DNA from: Escherichia phage vB_Eco_F26
Reading direction: 5' to 3' (one strand)
Length of the DNA stretch: 64,000 bases
Sequence record: OP870145.1
Part shown: positions 1 to 10,117 of the stretch, one piece after another
Layout of the letters: each line of letters starts with the position of its first letter
Position numbering within the stretch: position 1 is the stretch's first letter
Made by a program: the position numbers and the translations under genes
The notes under the pieces: model-generated
Database searches by the model: none
What the model was told of the DNA's origin: nothing
The model's input: the letters and a program-made list of their open reading frames with translations, nothing else

Positions 1-111
1 TCCTGCTGCTTTTGATGCCTCACGAATCTCATTGTTAATTTGACGAAACTCCGACTCAAAGTGACGACGAAGCTTATTTCGACGGATAAAAACTTCTGTA
101 TTGATAGTCAT
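1..111 (-). CDS. hypothetical protein, N-terminal part only (gene runs off window start)
   Basis: ATG at 111-109 preceded by GAGGAG Shine-Dalgarno; frame open to window edge (MTINTEVFIRRNKLRRHFESEF...). Confidence 0.4.
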   Translation of the reverse strand, partial: MTINTEVFIRRNKLRRHFESEFRQINNEIREASKAAG

Positions 112-170
112 GTTGTTCTCCTCTTGACTGATAGAAAAATTATACCACAGTCAAGAGGAAAAGTAAACAG

Positions 171-449
171 TTATTCTTTAAATCTAATCAATTTATTCAT
201 AGACTTTGAAACTTCTGCACGAACCTCATGTAGATTTTTGAGCTGTTCAAGACGCTGCTCATAGTAAGCAATTTCATCTTCTTCGAGACAGTCCTGTGAA
301 TCTTCTTTAAGATAGCGTGCATAGTCCTGGAAAGCGTTACGGACTACTTCCTGGAAATCATCAAGACTTTGAATTTTCTTAGGAGCAACAGATACACGAC
401 GAGGGGCAGTATAATACTCATAACCAAACCCTGCGCTTAATTGAGCCAT
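171..449 (-). CDS. hypothetical small protein (92 aa from ATG at 449)
   Basis: ORF track 171..491; internal ATG at 449 has GAGGAAA SD and overlaps upstream stop (TAATG). Confidence 0.5.
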
Positions 450-715
450 TAATATTTTTCCTCTGGTTGGAACACAGCACGACAAGCCCACATACTGGCT
501 TCTTTGAGTTTCGTTTTAGCAATAGTTAACTGATCGAGGCTTTCGGCATAATTCTTCGCGAATTCACAGTCTTCACAATTATCTAGTGCTTCCCAGAATT
601 CATCGTATAAAGCATCAAAGATAAGTCCTAAACGAACTTCAGCGTCTTTGATGGCATTCACTTTACCGATTTTCTTTTCAGTATGCGGCTTATAACCCTT
701 AATATCTTCAATCAT
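449..715 (-). CDS. hypothetical small protein (88 aa)
   Basis: ORF track 449..751; ATG at 715 preceded by GAGGAAG SD; tightly packed with neighbours. Confidence 0.45.
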
Positions 716-929
716 ATTTGACTTCCTCACCAGTACATAAATCATATTCAACTAAACGAATAGGTTCATGAATGCCATATCCCTGAACAGAAATTTCTGT
801 AGTAGGATAAATTCCATCAATATCACCCATGTTCCATGCTTCGTTAAATTGCTGTTCGCCTGAATTACTAAACCATTCGGCGAAAGCATTTAGCACATCT
901 TCAGAACCTTCAATAATTATCTTTGCCAT
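708..929 (-). CDS. hypothetical protein (73 aa)
   Basis: ORF; ATG overlaps stop of grcA-like gene (TAATG). Confidence 0.5.
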   Translation of the reverse strand: MAKIIIEGSEDVLNAFAEWFSNSGEQQFNEAWNMGDIDGIYPTTEISVQGYGIHEPIRLVEYDLCTGEEVKYD

Positions 930-1291
930 TACAAACTCTCGGTAAAGGTACGAGCAATAACGTCGCGTTGCTGTTCCGGAGTCAGAGAGTTAAAGCGAAC
1001 TGCATAACCGGATACACGGATGGTCAGCTGCGGATATTTTTCCGGATGCTTAACTGCATCTTCCAGAGTTTCACGACGCAGAACGTTAACGTTCAGGTGT
1101 TGACCACCTTCAATTTTAACTGTAGGCTGTTGCTCAATTTCAATTTCACGGGCATGCAAACCGTAGAAAATTTCTGGGTCTACAAAAGAGTCCTCTTTAA
1201 AGGTTTTAGAGACAATAATTCGTGCTTGAATACCATCTTCAAAATAAATAGTACCTTTATGTGTGCCTTCAAGAATTTGATATGCTTTCAT
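929..1291 (-). CDS. grcA: autonomous glycyl radical cofactor, GrcA/YfiD-like
   Basis: C-terminal 60 aa ([60 protein letters not shown]) matches E. coli GrcA as recalled, including the RVSGY glycyl radical motif; GAGG SD. Confidence 0.85.
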
Positions 1292-1298
1292 ATAAACC

Positions 1299-1628
1299 TC
1301 AATTAAAAAATAAATTTATCCAAGATTGTTCTTTAATTAAAAATGGCTCAGAATCATATGCCATTAAACTCTGTGTGATTAGTCCTTTAAAAGGCCCATC
1401 AATAAATTCCATGGTAAAATATGGAATTTTATTCATTAGCCGTGCATTAGGAGCAGTACATAAAACTCTGCATCCTTTGAATACACCCTTTTGTAATTTG
1501 TATTGCTTGGGATAAAATTCGCTCAAAATGTTATTATTCGCTAAAATTTCAAAATGATTCACCAATTTATTTTTAATAGTTTTTGGTGAAAAATAGAGAT
1601 ATTCGAAAAGCTGTGCGTCTGTCATCAT
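1299..1628 (-). CDS. hypothetical protein (109 aa), translationally coupled to upstream P-loop gene
   Basis: ORF track 1299..1679; ATGATG at 1628-1623 overlaps the TGA stop of the upstream gene (ATGA coupling). Confidence 0.5.
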
Positions 1629-2164
1629 TGCATTCCGATTACGAAAAACTGTGGACGAGTAATACCACCAATGCAACATTTACTATTGCAACAGTACTGT
1701 ACAGTGTCAATATGAGCATCATAAATCTTATCCATATCAGGAGATTTGACAGGCTCGTCAATTATATACAAAATTCGCGAAAGCGATAAACCTCTGAACT
1801 TGCTTCCTTTATTACCAATAAAACTGCGCACAGAATCAGTAAATAAACGAAAACGTATATCATCATTAGAATAACGCGAAAATTCCTTTTTAATGTCATC
1901 TGCGGAATTTTTAGCATAAACTGAAGTATTAGAAAGAACAATAACTGTTCCGCCATCATACAACCAGTTAGCAGCGAAGTTAGTCACAGCAATTGATTTA
2001 CCGGATTGACGTCCACCATCTATACGAAGTGTGCAATACTGCTTAAGTAAGTCTTCAAATGGCGGGATATATTCGTTTTTACAAATTTCTTCTACTCTAG
2101 CATCAGAATGGTGTGTAAAAGCATTCATCAGGGATAGATAAGGACCAGTTAAAAATGTTCTCAT
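1625..2164 (-). CDS. P-loop NTPase of unknown function (179 aa)
   Basis: Walker A GGRQSGKS near aa 50 and Walker B-like ILYIIDEP near aa 130 in the translated ORF. Confidence 0.6.
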   Translation of the reverse strand: MRTFLTGPYLSLMNAFTHHSDARVEEICKNEYIPPFEDLLKQYCTLRIDGGRQSGKSIAVTNFAANWLYDGGTVIVLSNTSVYAKNSADDIKKEFSRYSNDDIRFRLFTDSVRSFIGNKGSKFRGLSLSRILYIIDEPVKSPDMDKIYDAHIDTVQYCCNSKCCIGGITRPQFFVIGMQ

Positions 2165-2245
2165 TTAGTTTCTCTTTTAGGTTGGGCCATTCCTTGGCGC
2201 ATGAATTGTCCATTTCTGTATTTACCCCTCCAAGTAATTATGAAT

Positions 2246-2275
2246 ATACTATCACAATTCTAGGAGAAAGTAAAC
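2246..2275 (-). promoter_or_regulatory. T4 early-type promoter (minus strand GTTTAC -35, 18-nt spacer, TAGTAT -10)
   Basis: Motif read on minus strand upstream of the P-loop operon; near-identical copy at 2635..2664. Confidence 0.45.
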
Positions 2276-2277
2276 TG

Positions 2278-2580
2278 TTATTTACCTTTAATTACTTTAG
2301 CTGCTTCGATAGCCGCTTGCTGAAGGTCATCCATAGACATACCGAATTTAGAAGCAAAGTTATCAATTTTCTTTTCGACAGCATTCAAAGGCTTGGCCTG
2401 TTTACCTTCATTAGCGCCAGGAAGAGCGAGAATACGCTCTTTGTCAATATAAAGGCTTACAAGTTTCTTACGGTCTTTATCGGACAAATCATGAAATGAA
2501 TGGGCCTTTTTATTTATAGCGGCTTCTAATTTACCTGCACTCACTCGCGCTTCAGTAATAAATTCTTGATATGTTTTCAT
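2278..2580 (-). CDS. internal protein (IP) family, 100 aa, with capsid-targeting sequence
   Basis: N-terminus MKTYQEFITEA is the T-even IP capsid-targeting sequence ending in an I-x-E prohead-protease site; size and position next to e resemble T4 ipII. Confidence 0.75.
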   Translation of the reverse strand: MKTYQEFITEARVSAGKLEAAINKKAHSFHDLSDKDRKKLVSLYIDKERILALPGANEGKQAKPLNAVEKKIDNFASKFGMSMDDLQQAAIEAAKVIKGK

Positions 2581-2634
2581 ATGTTTCCTTTAAATATTTT
2601 AATTAATAATTTATCTATTCAAGTAACTGTGAAT

Positions 2635-2664
2635 ATACTATCACAATTCTAGGAGAAAGTAAAC
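2635..2664 (-). promoter_or_regulatory. T4 early-type promoter for IP gene (GTTTAC -35 / TAGTAT -10)
   Basis: Minus-strand motif about 55 nt upstream of ATG 2580. Confidence 0.45.
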
Positions 2665-2668
2665 AACT

Positions 2669-3199
<531 letters not shown>

Positions 3200-3655
3200 T
3201 TAAAAGAGGCTGTTCATTATTCGGTAAAGTGAAGGACCCATCACGTATTGCCACTGAGTACGAGGAATAAGAGCAAAAGCGTCCATCTCTGGAATCATAA
3301 CACCATCTTTATTTTCAAAATAAGACTCACAATAGCAATTTCTGAACATCTCATGCTCTACTGGAATCGTATAATAAAATAACTGTAAGTCTTTATTACT
3401 AGAATATTTAAATACACCTAGGTCTTCTAGAAGGTCTGGATTATAATTGCTAAAACCGGTCTCTTCTAAACATTCTCTTCGTGCTGCATCTAGTGCACTT
3501 AAATCAGAATTTTCTACACGGCCCTTTGGAATATCCCAGCGATGTGCCATCATTCCAGGCTTACGAGAACCAGTAACCCGACCCATAAATAAATCTTTAT
3601 CTTCTGTCATGAAGATAATACCAGCTGATAATGTTTTCATTTTAATTTCCTGCAA
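3200..3655 (-). CDS. nudE: Nudix hydrolase NudE (e.1)
   Basis: 151 aa; Nudix box-like GRVENSDLSALDAARRECLEETGF; position next to e as in T4. Confidence 0.85.
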   Translation of the reverse strand: MQEIKMKTLSAGIIFMTEDKDLFMGRVTGSRKPGMMAHRWDIPKGRVENSDLSALDAARRECLEETGFSNYNPDLLEDLGVFKYSSNKDLQLFYYTIPVEHEMFRNCYCESYFENKDGVMIPEMDAFALIPRTQWQYVMGPSLYRIMNSLF

Positions 3656-3999
3656 TCACTCACAAACTCTTTCATTGATTCATTTTCAATATAAGACATG
3701 TAGCTATTATATTCTTTTAATTGTATTTTGTAATCCTTTTTTCTTTGCCAATTTATTTTAAAATTATCATAATGAAAATATAGCATGGTACCAAAGAATG
3801 AAAATAATGAAATAATTTTAGTATAGCGAAGTTCACTCCAAACTTCTATTATATTTACTGTGCCGTCGATGTTTAAAATAAGACAGTCAATTAATAATCC
3901 AAAAAGACTACCCGCAAGAGCTGCAGCCAACGCCACAGCAAAAATTAAAAATGACTCAGGAAGCGAATATTTGACTTTATTTAGTTTTGGCTTTTGCAT
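3637..3999 (-). CDS. small membrane protein (120 aa)
   Basis: ORF with hydrophobic segment LIFAVALAAALAGSLFGLLIDCLIL. Confidence 0.55.
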   Translation of the reverse strand: MQKPKLNKVKYSLPESFLIFAVALAAALAGSLFGLLIDCLILNIDGTVNIIEVWSELRYTKIISLFSFFGTMLYFHYDNFKINWQRKKDYKIQLKEYNSYMSYIENESMKEFVSDCRKLK

Positions 4000-8643: not shown

Positions 8644-8719
8644 TGGTCGAGACAGTAGGGATCGAACCTACGACCTAGGACTTAGAAGGTCCTTGCTCTT
8701 CCTTCTGAGCTATGCCCCG
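8644..8719 (-). tRNA. tRNA-Arg (anticodon TCT)
   Basis: Manual fold: acceptor CGGGGCA/TGTCTCG (2 G-U), anticodon loop CTTCTAA, T-arm GTAGG-TTCGATC-CCTAC, encoded CCA. Confidence 0.7.
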
Positions 8720-8723
8720 TAAT

Positions 8724-8799
8724 TGGGGTGACCGATGGGAGTCGAACCCATGACTACGAGAATCACAATCTCGAGTTCTACCAACTGAACTACGGCCAC
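8724..8799 (-). tRNA. tRNA-His (anticodon GTG)
   Basis: Manual fold: acceptor GTGGCCG/CGGTCAC, D-arm TAGTTCAGTTGGTAGAAC, anticodon loop TTGTGAT, T-loop TTCGACT, CCA. Confidence 0.7.
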
Positions 8800-8913
8800 A
8801 TTAATACCTACTCCAACAATCAAGATGTCTTCACACGAAATTAAGAGAAGAGTGATCAGTTCAACCCCTATAATCGCGTCAAGTAGATATTAATGTGACA
8901 GTTGTCACAAATT

Positions 8914-8988
8914 TGGCGGACGTGATAGGATTCGAACCTATAACCAATCGCTTAACAGGCGATCGCTCTGCCATTGAGCTACACATCC
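8914..8988 (-). tRNA. tRNA-Asn (anticodon GTT)
   Basis: Manual fold: acceptor GGATGTG/CACGTCC, anticodon stem ATCGC/GCGAT with loop CTGTTAA, T-loop TTCGAAT, CCA. Confidence 0.7.
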
Positions 8989-8992
8989 AAAT

Positions 8993-9079
8993 TGGTGGGG
9001 AGTGGTGGAGTCGAACCACCCGAGTCGCAATGACAATGGATTTACAGTCCACACCGCTACCTCTACGGGATAACTCCCC
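8993..9079 (-). tRNA. tRNA-Tyr (anticodon GTA), long variable arm
   Basis: Acceptor GGGGAGT/ACTCCCC, anticodon loop CTGTAAA, T-arm GGTGG-TTCGACT-CCACC, CCA; D-arm pairing not cleanly resolved by hand. Confidence 0.6.
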
Positions 9080-9088
9080 AAATTAATT

Positions 9089-9163
9089 TGGTGGCCCTGG
9101 GTGGAATTGAACCACCATCTGGCGATTATGAGTCGCTTGCTTGAACCTTCCAGCTACAGGGCC
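9089..9163 (-). tRNA. tRNA with CAT anticodon (Ile-lysidine type as in T4, or Met)
   Basis: Acceptor GGCCCTG/CAGGGCC, anticodon loop CTCATAA, T-arm GGTGG-TTCAATT-CCACC, CCA. Confidence 0.6.
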
Positions 9164-9171
9164 AAATTTTC

Positions 9172-9657
9172 TTATTTTATGTAATATTTATTTAAAAACT
9201 TTCTAGCTTGAGTATGGCTAACATTTATAGCGTTTGCATAATTTTTAATAAAACCTCGTTCATCCATATTAAAATTTTCTAATATTTTTAATCGTCTAGT
9301 TATCTCATCTTGGCTTAAGGTACTTGCATTATTTTTAGAAATTTTTTCTAAGGACTGTGCCGAGTGTTTTCGACCATTAAAATTAAAATTTTTAGATTTT
9401 GGAGGAAATCTATTATTTAGTCTCGCATCTTTTGTATTTTGATTATTAGTTGCGCAATATATGTTATTTAATGAATATGGTCCTTTATCGCCGAAACGGC
9501 ACATGCAGTATTCATGACCCTTTCTTCCACGCTTATCATATTTTCCCGTTGATTTCCACCAATGCAGCCATTCATCAAAAGTTAAATTCCATTCAATGTT
9601 TCTACGTATAGCAGAATTCCGCTGAGAAATATATTTTGCATAATCTTCTTTCATCAC
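9172..9657 (-). CDS. HNH-family homing endonuclease-like protein with NUMOD-type DNA-binding motifs, embedded in the tRNA cluster
   Basis: 161 aa; GHEYCMCRFGDKGPYSLNNIYCATNNQN (HNH_3-like), GRKHSAQSLEKI repeat, C-terminal helix-turn-helix-like segment; T4 has a GIY-YIG seg gene in the analogous region. Confidence 0.6.
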   Translation of the reverse strand: MMKEDYAKYISQRNSAIRRNIEWNLTFDEWLHWWKSTGKYDKRGRKGHEYCMCRFGDKGPYSLNNIYCATNNQNTKDARLNNRFPPKSKNFNFNGRKHSAQSLEKISKNNASTLSQDEITRRLKILENFNMDERGFIKNYANAINVSHTQARKFLNKYYIK

Positions 9658-9701
9658 AAATTTCTCTACTTATTCAATACACCAAGCTAAATCAGCAAAA
9701 C

Positions 9702-9791
9702 TGGCGGAGGCGATAGGATTTGAACCTATGAGTCGCCGGAGCGACTGCCGGTTTTCAAGACCGATGCATTAAACCACTCTGCCACGCCTCC
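9702..9791 (-). tRNA. tRNA-Ser (anticodon TGA), long variable arm
   Basis: Acceptor GGAGGCG/CGCCTCC, anticodon loop CTTGAAA, T-loop TTCAAAT, CCA; sits 2 nt after tRNA-Pro as in the T4 Pro-Ser dimeric precursor. Confidence 0.7.
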
Positions 9792-9793
9792 AG

Positions 9794-9867
9794 TCTCCGT
9801 GGCAGGATTTGAACCTACGACATTCTGCTCCCAAAGCAGACGCTCTACCAAACTGAGCTACACGGAG
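9794..9867 (-). tRNA. tRNA-Pro (anticodon TGG), CCA not encoded
   Basis: Acceptor CTCCGTG/CACGGAG, anticodon stem TCTGC/GCAGA with loop TTTGGGA, T-loop TTCAAAT. Confidence 0.7.
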
Positions 9868-9877
9868 TAAATTAAAT

Positions 9878-9951
<74 letters not shown>

Positions 9952-9956
9952 AAATT

Positions 9957-10043
9957 TGGTGCGAGAAGTGGGACTCGAACCCACAAGGAAATCATTCCGC
10001 AGCATTTTAAGTGCTGTGCCTTTACCAATTTGACCATTCTCGC
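9957..10043 (-). tRNA. tRNA-Leu (anticodon TAA), long variable arm
   Basis: Acceptor GCGAGAA/TTCTCGC, anticodon stem CAGCA/TGCTG with loop CTTAAAA, T-loop TTCGAGT, CCA. Confidence 0.7.
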
Positions 10044-10044
10044 G

Positions 10045-10117
10045 CTGGGAATAAAGGACTCGAACCTTTGCATCTAGCAGTCAAAGTGCTATGCCTTACC
10101 AACTTGGCTAATTCCCA
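10045..10117 (-). tRNA. tRNA-Gln (anticodon TTG), CCA not encoded
   Basis: Acceptor TGGGAAT/ATTCCCA, anticodon stem TAGCA/TGCTA with loop CTTTGAC, T-loop TTCGAGT; abuts tRNA-Leu as in the T4 Gln-Leu dimer. Confidence 0.7.

Follow-up and report, generated by a model that had tools for sequence, protein, structure and literature searches.

A 64,000-nt segment of the Tequatrovirus (T4-like) genome of Escherichia phage vB_Eco_F26 (OP870145.1; hereafter, the window) contains an orthologue of the T4 gene vs.6, which encodes a GrcA-like autonomous glycyl-radical cofactor and is a mosaic of phage and host DNA. The open reading frame (ORF) is located on the minus strand at 929..1291, with the ATG at 1289–1291 and the TAA at 929–931, and specifies a protein of 120 amino acids (assignment based on the ORF, Pfam, synteny, structure match, and PHROG). 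Its Shine-Dalgarno sequence, GAGG (1297..1300, minus strand; read from the sequence), lies 5 nt 5' of the ATG and overlaps the TGA stop codon of vs.7, and its own TAA overlaps the ATG of vs.5 (TAATG). The 5' part of the gene (1114..1291, minus strand; codons 1–59/60), termed the head here, specifies the phage-lineage N-terminal region, which is homologous to that of E. coli grcA. The 3' part, or tail, begins with a host-derived tract (~942..1113, minus strand; codons 60/61 to ~117, both boundaries being approximate) that covers the whole glycyl-radical domain, and ends with the last four codons and the stop codon (ACC GAG AGT TTG TAA; 929..941, minus strand), which are phage sequence outside the tract and hold the overlap with the vs.5 start. 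The glycyl-radical loop RVSGYAVRF (amino acids 92–100; 992..1018, minus strand) was located by alignment to E. coli GrcA, and the codon for Gly95 (1007–1009) corresponds to G102 of E. coli GrcA and G734 of PflB.

The deduced protein shares 98% amino acid identity with T4 vs.6 (Y06I, AAD42676.1) over all 120 residues, differing from the reference at two of them (Q54/P and R73/H), and matches PHROG 1209 at positions 1–120 of 121 (E 5.7e-63). In T4, the gene has the same neighbours (vs.5, vs.7, and vs.8), the same strand, and the same mosaic structure with an E. coli-like 3' half; the two tails differ at five nucleotides, four of which are synonymous and window-specific, while the fifth is the R73H change of T4. 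The window gene is the orthologue of T4 vs.6 and a member of the PHROG 1209 family, i.e. a gene that is already known and is labelled 'autonomous glycyl radical cofactor' in many phage records. We take Y06I to be the vs.6 product, which agrees with vs.6 being the ~14-kDa glycyl-radical ORF of T4. A Pfam search detected the Gly_radical domain (PF01228, E 2.5e-18; 67 bits against a cut-off of 22.2), and the best solved structure was that of E. coli GrcA (6OWR, E 9.3e-42; phmmer alignment spanning amino acids 22–120), followed by PflB; the T4 orthologue and 6OWR together establish the fold and the family. Like E. coli GrcA/YfiD (P68066; NMR structure 6OWR), the phage product is a small standalone protein with the radical glycine, the loop, and a homologous N-terminal region, but it is 7 residues shorter, its first 60 amino acids are just 28–30% identical, and its gene resides in a lytic phage and has phage expression signals. 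Residues 61–120 are 100% identical to residues 68–127 of E. coli GrcA, RVSGYAVRF included, and 18 of residues 1–60 are invariant between the two proteins. The first-pass annotation had described the gene as encoding a GrcA-type cofactor with a divergent N-terminal half, C-terminal ~60 residues like those of E. coli GrcA (including RVSGYAVRF), and a homologue in T4; each of these descriptions is borne out.

With the family definitions of TIGR04365 and IPR011140 as the standard for GrcA/YfiD, the size of the standalone 120-amino acid ORF fits the family (~14 kDa) and not part of a ~760-amino acid enzyme, and a GrcA-type N-terminal region was recognized by profile–profile comparison of phage and host heads. 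The C-terminal domain of PflB and TdcE also belongs to PF01228, residues 697–759 of PflB aligning to amino acids 58–120 of vs.6 (E 5e-26), but the phage protein has neither the catalytic barrel nor Cys418/Cys419, so that 'pyruvate formate-lyase' is a misnomer. Pyruvate formate-lyase (PFL) proper (TIGR01255) was rejected as an identification, only profile positions 680–744 of 744 being matched, with 89 bits against a cut-off of 994. The labels 'pyruvate formate-lyase' and 'ribonucleotide reductase subunit' given to this gene in phage records are both wrong.

At the DNA level, all 5,426 complete E. coli genomes contain a grcA gene with 96.8% identity to the 3' 185 nt of vs.6 (E 2e-80), and the first half of the gene aligns to E. 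coli grcA at ~40%. A maximum chi-square scan against E. coli grcA placed a single breakpoint after alignment column 199, at the codon before EGGQHL; identity rises from 0.40 on its left side to 0.97 on its right, and the observed value was reached in 0 of 2000 permutations. Base composition changes as well. The GC content at third codon positions (GC3) is 0.22 in the head and 0.41 in the 183-nt tail, the latter being close to the 0.43 of the E. coli grcA tail, and local GC content peaks at 0.51 at 961–1080, compared with ~0.33 around it. The gene thus has a sharp breakpoint with discordant ancestry and composition on its two sides. Six differences separate the window tail from that of E. coli, all synonymous (no nonsynonymous difference was found), and the last four codons account for four of them. 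Of these four, two are common to most of the phages compared, a third to about half of them, and the fourth to one other phage. This clustering, together with the occurrence of the same changes in other phages, indicates that the tract probably ends ~12 nt before the stop codon. Over the 170-nt interior, agreement with E. coli grcA extends to 168 bases in the window, to 169 in the T4 reference, and to all 170 in T2, a further T4 record, Yersinia phage fPS-90, and three IMG/VR contigs. The vs.6 gene is therefore a host–phage mosaic, i.e. an old phage head joined at a sharp breakpoint to a ~172-nt tract of E. coli grcA, with phage DNA on both flanks.

The phage tails are most similar to E. coli grcA, with identities ranging from 96.7% (window) to 98.4% (T4), compared with 89.6–91.3% for Citrobacter amalonaticus and 82.0–82.5% for Salmonella. 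Synonymous divergence (dS) of the tail from E. coli is 0.147 in the window and 0.046 in T4, but 0.36 in Citrobacter, 0.56 in K. pneumoniae, and 1.02 in Salmonella. Since synonymous sites are strongly diverged among host orthologues that specify these 60 residues identically or nearly so, constraint at the protein level cannot explain the identity of the tail. In a neighbour-joining (NJ) tree based on a 158-nt interior, the tails of T-even phages and Mosigvirus group with Escherichia. E. coli grcA shows no discontinuity between head and tail when compared with Citrobacter (88.1 and 92.9% identity, respectively), the composition of the phage tail is host-like, and the later, phage-specific changes are biased from GC to AT (12 of 18); on these grounds, the donor can be identified and the direction of transfer was from host to phage. 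By nucleotide comparison, the donor is grcA and not its paralogue tdcE, which was rejected with just 77% DNA identity to the window gene; pflB was compared with the tail of Klebsiella phage KP179 only, to which it has 83.5% identity against 91.3% for grcA. Klebsiella host grcA sequences were obtained from two entries filed as plasmids in PLSDB, CP125156.1 (5.37 Mb) and LR134122.1 (0.57 Mb), which are Klebsiella chromosomal sequence; the grcA gene of K. aerogenes, a second Klebsiella reference, was frameshifted and dropped.

The head is old and widespread. Homologues of vs.6 were found in 1,588 phage records, which comprise Tequatrovirus, Mosigvirus, Jiaodavirus, Karamvirus, and Slopekvirus as well as T4-like phages of Aeromonas and Vibrio, T5-like Demerecviridae, and a Yersinia jumbo phage. 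Profiles of the N-terminal halves of phage and bacterial GrcA match end to end (hhalign; probability 95.5%, E 1.5e-8, 60 columns, 28% identity), and because the head profiles match, the phage gene as a whole is considered an ancient grcA homologue rather than a PFL fragment. The GrcA-like genes of the T5-like, Karamvirus, Slopekvirus, Aeromonas, and Vibrio phages belong to the same family and share its architecture (120–145 amino acids) and conserved C-terminal motifs, but they lack a recent host patch, their tails being 74–84% identical to any sampled host grcA; GC3 values of the head and of the tail are also similar to each other in the copies from T5-like, Aeromonas, and Vibrio phages. As the head is conserved across the five genera named above and is still recognizable in T5-like phages, it is far older than the tail. 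The first-pass annotation had proposed a recent host acquisition, which holds for the 3' ~172 nt of recent E. coli DNA but not for the 5' half, which represents an old phage lineage according to its hhalign match and its GC3.

Phage records were also counted by their identity to the 170-nt grcA interior of three hosts. With E. coli grcA as the query, 365 records had at least 99% identity, 277 had 95–99%, 3 had 90–95%, 333 had 80–90%, and 529 had 60–80%, i.e. the distribution is bimodal, with 642 records at 95% or above and 862 at 60–90%. The corresponding numbers for K. pneumoniae grcA were 0, 95, 45, 824, and 522, and those for Salmonella grcA, used as a control, were 0, 0, 2, 948, and 545. 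Between Tequatrovirus-type and Mosigvirus-type genes, 13 of 37 synonymous sites differ in the head but 0 of 43 in the tail (Fisher p 1e-5), and the flanks are ~78% identical, which indicates that the E. coli tract is younger than the split between the two genera. Among sequences of the Mosigvirus type, the interior of EP32a departs from that of E. coli at 7 positions and the interior of L101 at none, and the heads of these two differ by 4.

A parallel case is found in Klebsiella phages. Jiaodavirus members carry a tail of the K. pneumoniae type, and all 95 records with at least 95% identity to K. pneumoniae grcA are Klebsiella-phage records. KPV15 matches K. pneumoniae grcA at 157 of 158 interior bases, groups with it with 100% NJ bootstrap support, and has its remaining differences clustered at the 3' end as well. 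In KP179, GC3 is 0.20 in the head and 0.54 in the tail. These data show that host DNA has replaced this segment in phages on at least two independent occasions. The two residues at either end of amino acids 77–81 (window 1046–1060) also differ among hosts, with E77/K81 in E. coli (ETLEDAVKH), Citrobacter, and Yersinia, and L/E in Klebsiella, Salmonella, and Enterobacter (ETLLDAVEH). They follow the host in T-even phages, in Jiaodavirus, and in some Slopekvirus phages, the latter despite just ~83% DNA identity to any host. This pattern hints at selection for a match to the host, and in Slopekvirus it suggests either older, decayed conversions or convergent selection. With regard to individual sequences, the KPV15 GenBank records annotate a gene under the vs.6 match (GrcA in NC_055715.1), whereas in the IMG/VR copy of KPV15 (L121, 601–959) the match is 359 nt instead of 360 and the frame is interrupted, which may be a sequencing error or a frameshift. 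A 19-kb IMG/VR contig contains a full bacterial-type grcA with a host-like N-terminus and a tail 91% identical to that of Yersinia, and is probably host DNA labelled as viral.

As for function, the only 'spare part' proteins for PFL described as biochemically validated are Y06I of T4 and YfiD/GrcA of E. coli (PMC8683613, PMC12338860). According to Wagner et al. (2001), as cited in these two articles, the radical is installed on Y06I/YfiD by PflA, and the protein binds oxygen-cleaved PflB and restores its activity; the first-pass annotation had likewise attributed the restoration of oxygen-damaged PFL to the T4 homologue, in agreement with this cited report. Nolan et al. (2006) found a Gly_radical match in six of six T4-like genomes and guessed at a role in nucleotide metabolism (PMC1524935).

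Several other explanations were weighed against the evidence above. A tract of 185 nt that is 96.8% identical to a host chromosome could arise from a chimeric assembly or from contamination, host DNA being abundant in phage lysates, and the first-pass annotation had named host-like flanks and a chimeric assembly as the finding that would overturn its proposal. The flanks are not host-like, however: the downstream 100 nt share 26% identity with the E. coli flank, homology past the stop codon is absent, and the upstream half of the gene is at 40%. Megablast of the whole 64 kb against the 5,426 E. coli genomes returned only 925..1113, which is the sole match of the window to E. coli chromosomes, and a tRNA-Tyr-like match on one plasmid record. 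In addition, the tract lies in frame inside a phage ORF, the same junction occurs in the T4 references, T2, 642 phage records, and IMG/VR contigs, and the window copy carries substitutions of its own, no E. coli genome exceeding 96.8%. Given the phage flanks and the presence of the junction in hundreds of genomes, an artefact was rejected and is scarcely credible. A similarly negligible probability attaches to the idea that no transfer occurred and that purifying selection or codon constraint maintains the identity to E. coli grcA. Although GrcA proteins of Enterobacterales hardly vary in the 60-amino acid domain, host orthologues of identical or almost identical protein sequence show 7–17% divergence in DNA, dS values from E. 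coli are 0.36 for Citrobacter and 1.02 for Salmonella, other phage lineages with the same motifs are only 74–84% identical, and the Salmonella query retrieved no phage record with at least 95% identity; this idea was rejected because of the synonymous divergence among hosts and the negative Salmonella control. It is also very improbable that the whole gene was captured recently from E. coli, with the N-terminal half then diverging fast and the radical domain frozen by selection. At the protein level, all phages and hosts do constrain the C-terminal domain very strongly, and the head does evolve faster at the protein level (dN, i.e. nonsynonymous divergence, of 0.05–0.35 between phage genera). 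Nevertheless, the tail is near-identical to that of the host even at synonymous sites, the head differs in GC3 and is only 40% identical in nucleotides, and the step occurs at one alignment column; furthermore, the same type of head is conserved across the five genera, recognizable in T5-like phages, and joined to unconverted tails in other phages. The age and spread of the head led us to reject a recent capture of the whole gene.

A possible but less favoured variant of the patch replacement is that a single conversion from E. coli to phage was followed by spread among T-even phages and Mosigvirus through phage–phage recombination during co-infection, with no repeated conversion from the host. 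T-even phages recombine freely, and the phage tails share 3'-end differences (tail positions 174 and 177) and the 5' boundary; either model would account for the star-like, additive pattern of differences centred on the E. coli sequence. Several phages, however, match E. coli at 170 of 170 bases while close relatives with nearly the same head carry up to 7 changes, as illustrated by EP32a and L101 (4 differences in the head, 7 in the tail), and conversion from host to phage at this position is recurrent, as the Klebsiella case shows. With respect to function, the vs.6 product might serve the anaerobic ribonucleotide reductase of the phage itself (NrdD, a glycyl-radical enzyme) instead of host PFL. 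The genes nrdD and nrdG are present in T4-like phages, and the proposal of Nolan et al. points in this direction, but the vs.6 domain is identical to that of host GrcA and closest to PflB (E 5e-26), no NrdD chain appeared within the E-value limit among the solved structures, the tail follows host grcA and not a phage gene, and T4 Y06I is reported, in the work cited above, to reconstitute cleaved PFL. A role in NrdD function is accordingly considered quite unlikely.

The explanation that we favour, and regard as highly probable, is that the vs.6 orthologue is a GrcA-like cofactor gene with an old head, whose radical-domain half was recently overwritten by E. coli grcA through patch recombination, with an independent replacement in Klebsiella phages. 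Several points count against it or limit its reach. The clade of Escherichia and T-even tails has a bootstrap value of only 73% (NJ, 158 nt), the host panel consists of one genome per species, and the K. pneumoniae grcA reference comes from a chromosome filed as a plasmid in PLSDB. Within the E. coli phages, the tail divergences (0–7 differences per 170 nt) are small numbers, and recurrent host conversion and one conversion followed by phage–phage spread fit alike. On the NCBIfam GrcA equivalog TIGR04365, the divergent N-terminal half of the protein keeps its score at 154.9 bits, short of the cut-off of 170. The predicted function in vB_Eco_F26 is transferred from T4 Y06I, and the adaptive reason for matching the host is put forward as a proposal.

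The mechanism suggested for the replacement is homologous patch recombination (gene conversion), by which ~942..1113 would have been overwritten with E. coli chromosomal grcA sequence. The patch would start at a universally conserved block encoding 10 residues and end a few codons before the stop codon. The recombining partners may have been an ancestral phage tail, ~75–85% identical to the host gene and containing long identical blocks (e.g. GAAGGTGGTCAACACCTGAACGTTAACGT), and host grcA DNA, presumably in the form of fragments available during infection and acted on by the phage recombination system. Strictly lytic T4-like phages degrade host DNA, and the proposal draws on the general recombination biology of T4. 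The exchanged piece would be exactly the domain that has to be recognized by host PflA and to fit host PflB. By analogy with the T4 and E. coli proteins, vs.6 of vB_Eco_F26 is expected to work like GrcA: the host activase PflA would install the radical on Gly95, the C-terminal domain (amino acids 61–120) would dock into host PFL from which oxygen has cut off the C-terminal radical domain, and this docking would restore the conversion of pyruvate to acetyl-CoA and formate in the infected cell. Under T4 host shut-off, the infected cell is no longer able to make its own GrcA.

In the surrounding region, the first 4 kb of the window has matches in 896 phage records, the top one being the collinear Salmonella phage Manna (96.6%), and identity to T4 over the same 4 kb is 95.3–95.6%. 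Downstream and upstream of vs.6, on the same minus strand, lie the orthologues of vs.5 (708..929; PHROG 1986) and vs.7 (1299..1628; PHROG 2049), respectively, followed by that of vs.8 (1625..2164, minus strand; BLAST against T4 and PHROG search), the N-terminus of which is 40 amino acids shorter than that of T4 vs.8. The vs.8 orthologue has weak P-loop or terminase-large-subunit-like similarity (PHROG 2, E 1.4e-6; AAA_14, E 0.0086), and the vs.4 orthologue (449–751, minus strand), two genes downstream of vs.6, contains an Acb2/Tad1 hairpin domain (PF24729, E 5e-19), i.e. that of an anti-CBASS nucleotide sponge. Ten tRNA genes (Arg, His, Asn, Tyr, Met(CAT), Ser, Pro, Gly, Leu, and Gln) are clustered at 8644–10117 on the minus strand, and the tRNA-Tyr region has an 89.5% match to the E. 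coli plasmid record NZ_CP077546.1. T4 carries eight tRNAs, and its set is different.

The distance from vs.6 to lysozyme e (2669..3163) is 1,378 bp in the window, in line with the ~1.4 kb given in the first-pass annotation, compared with 2,584 bp in T4. Pairwise BLAST showed that window 1–2227 corresponds to positions 1501–3733 of the T4 locus, from regB through vs.8, and is collinear with it at 95.7%; the vs.3–vs.8 block is collinear with T4, and the order vs.5, vs.6, vs.7, and vs.8 is canonical. Beyond it, a ~520-bp T4 segment with denV (endonuclease V) and a ~560-bp segment with ipIII are missing from the window, while ipII is kept, and e.2 is missing beyond nudE; the junctions relative to T4 lie at ~2227–2245, ~2695, and ~3666 in the window. 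The shorter distance is due to the absence of denV and ipIII, so that, of the 'rearranged or reduced' accessory region suspected earlier, the reduction relative to T4 is real, whereas vs.6 itself has not moved. Salmonella phage Manna has the same layout and is collinear with the window over 4.2 kb. Two copies of a 56-nt direct repeat, 89% identical to each other, are present at 2220..2275, upstream of vs.8 on the minus strand and at the T4 denV junction, and at 2609..2664, upstream of ipII and at the T4 ipIII junction; in T4, ipII and ipIII are also flanked by copies of this repeat. Since the denV and ipIII gaps coincide with the repeats, these data suggest that gene cassettes may be gained or lost by means of them. 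On the minus strand, the repeat reads GTTTAC...TAGTAT, which by our own reading resembles a T4 early promoter. A consensus promoter scan did not list it: the sites found were no more numerous than in shuffled sequences, and the promoter-like element repeated upstream of vs.8 and ipII was missed.

No description of the DNA-level mosaic or of repeated re-copying from the host was found in the searchable literature, although older key papers (Wagner 2001, Miller 2003) lie outside it and a prior mention is possible. In cyanophages, studies of psbA have reportedly found intragenic recombination between host and phage. There too, a T4-like phage carries a host-type metabolic gene with segments of discordant host and phage ancestry, but the gene, hosts, and ecology differ, and the vs.6 patch comprises just one domain, with boundaries that coincide between the two independent events.

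The gene itself, T4 vs.6/Y06I in a T4 relative, adds nothing new, but the DNA-level picture is worth keeping: a lytic T4-type phage has a ~170-nt tract identical or near-identical to a host chromosomal gene and limited to one protein domain. In evolutionary terms, the mosaic and the parallel case in Klebsiella phages are of modest interest, and they carry the practical warning that such host-like tracts are not contamination. Whether the process is general in Tevenvirinae is, in our estimation, evenly balanced: the radical-domain half of vs.6 may be repeatedly re-copied from grcA of the current host (E. coli in Tequatrovirus and Mosigvirus, K. pneumoniae in Jiaodavirus), an ongoing conversion that would keep the spare part matched to host PflB and PflA, with E77/K81 versus L/E as the selected sites. 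If so, vs.6 would provide a clean and experimentally tractable case of gene conversion from host to virulent phage, in which an auxiliary metabolic gene tracks the partner proteins of its host.

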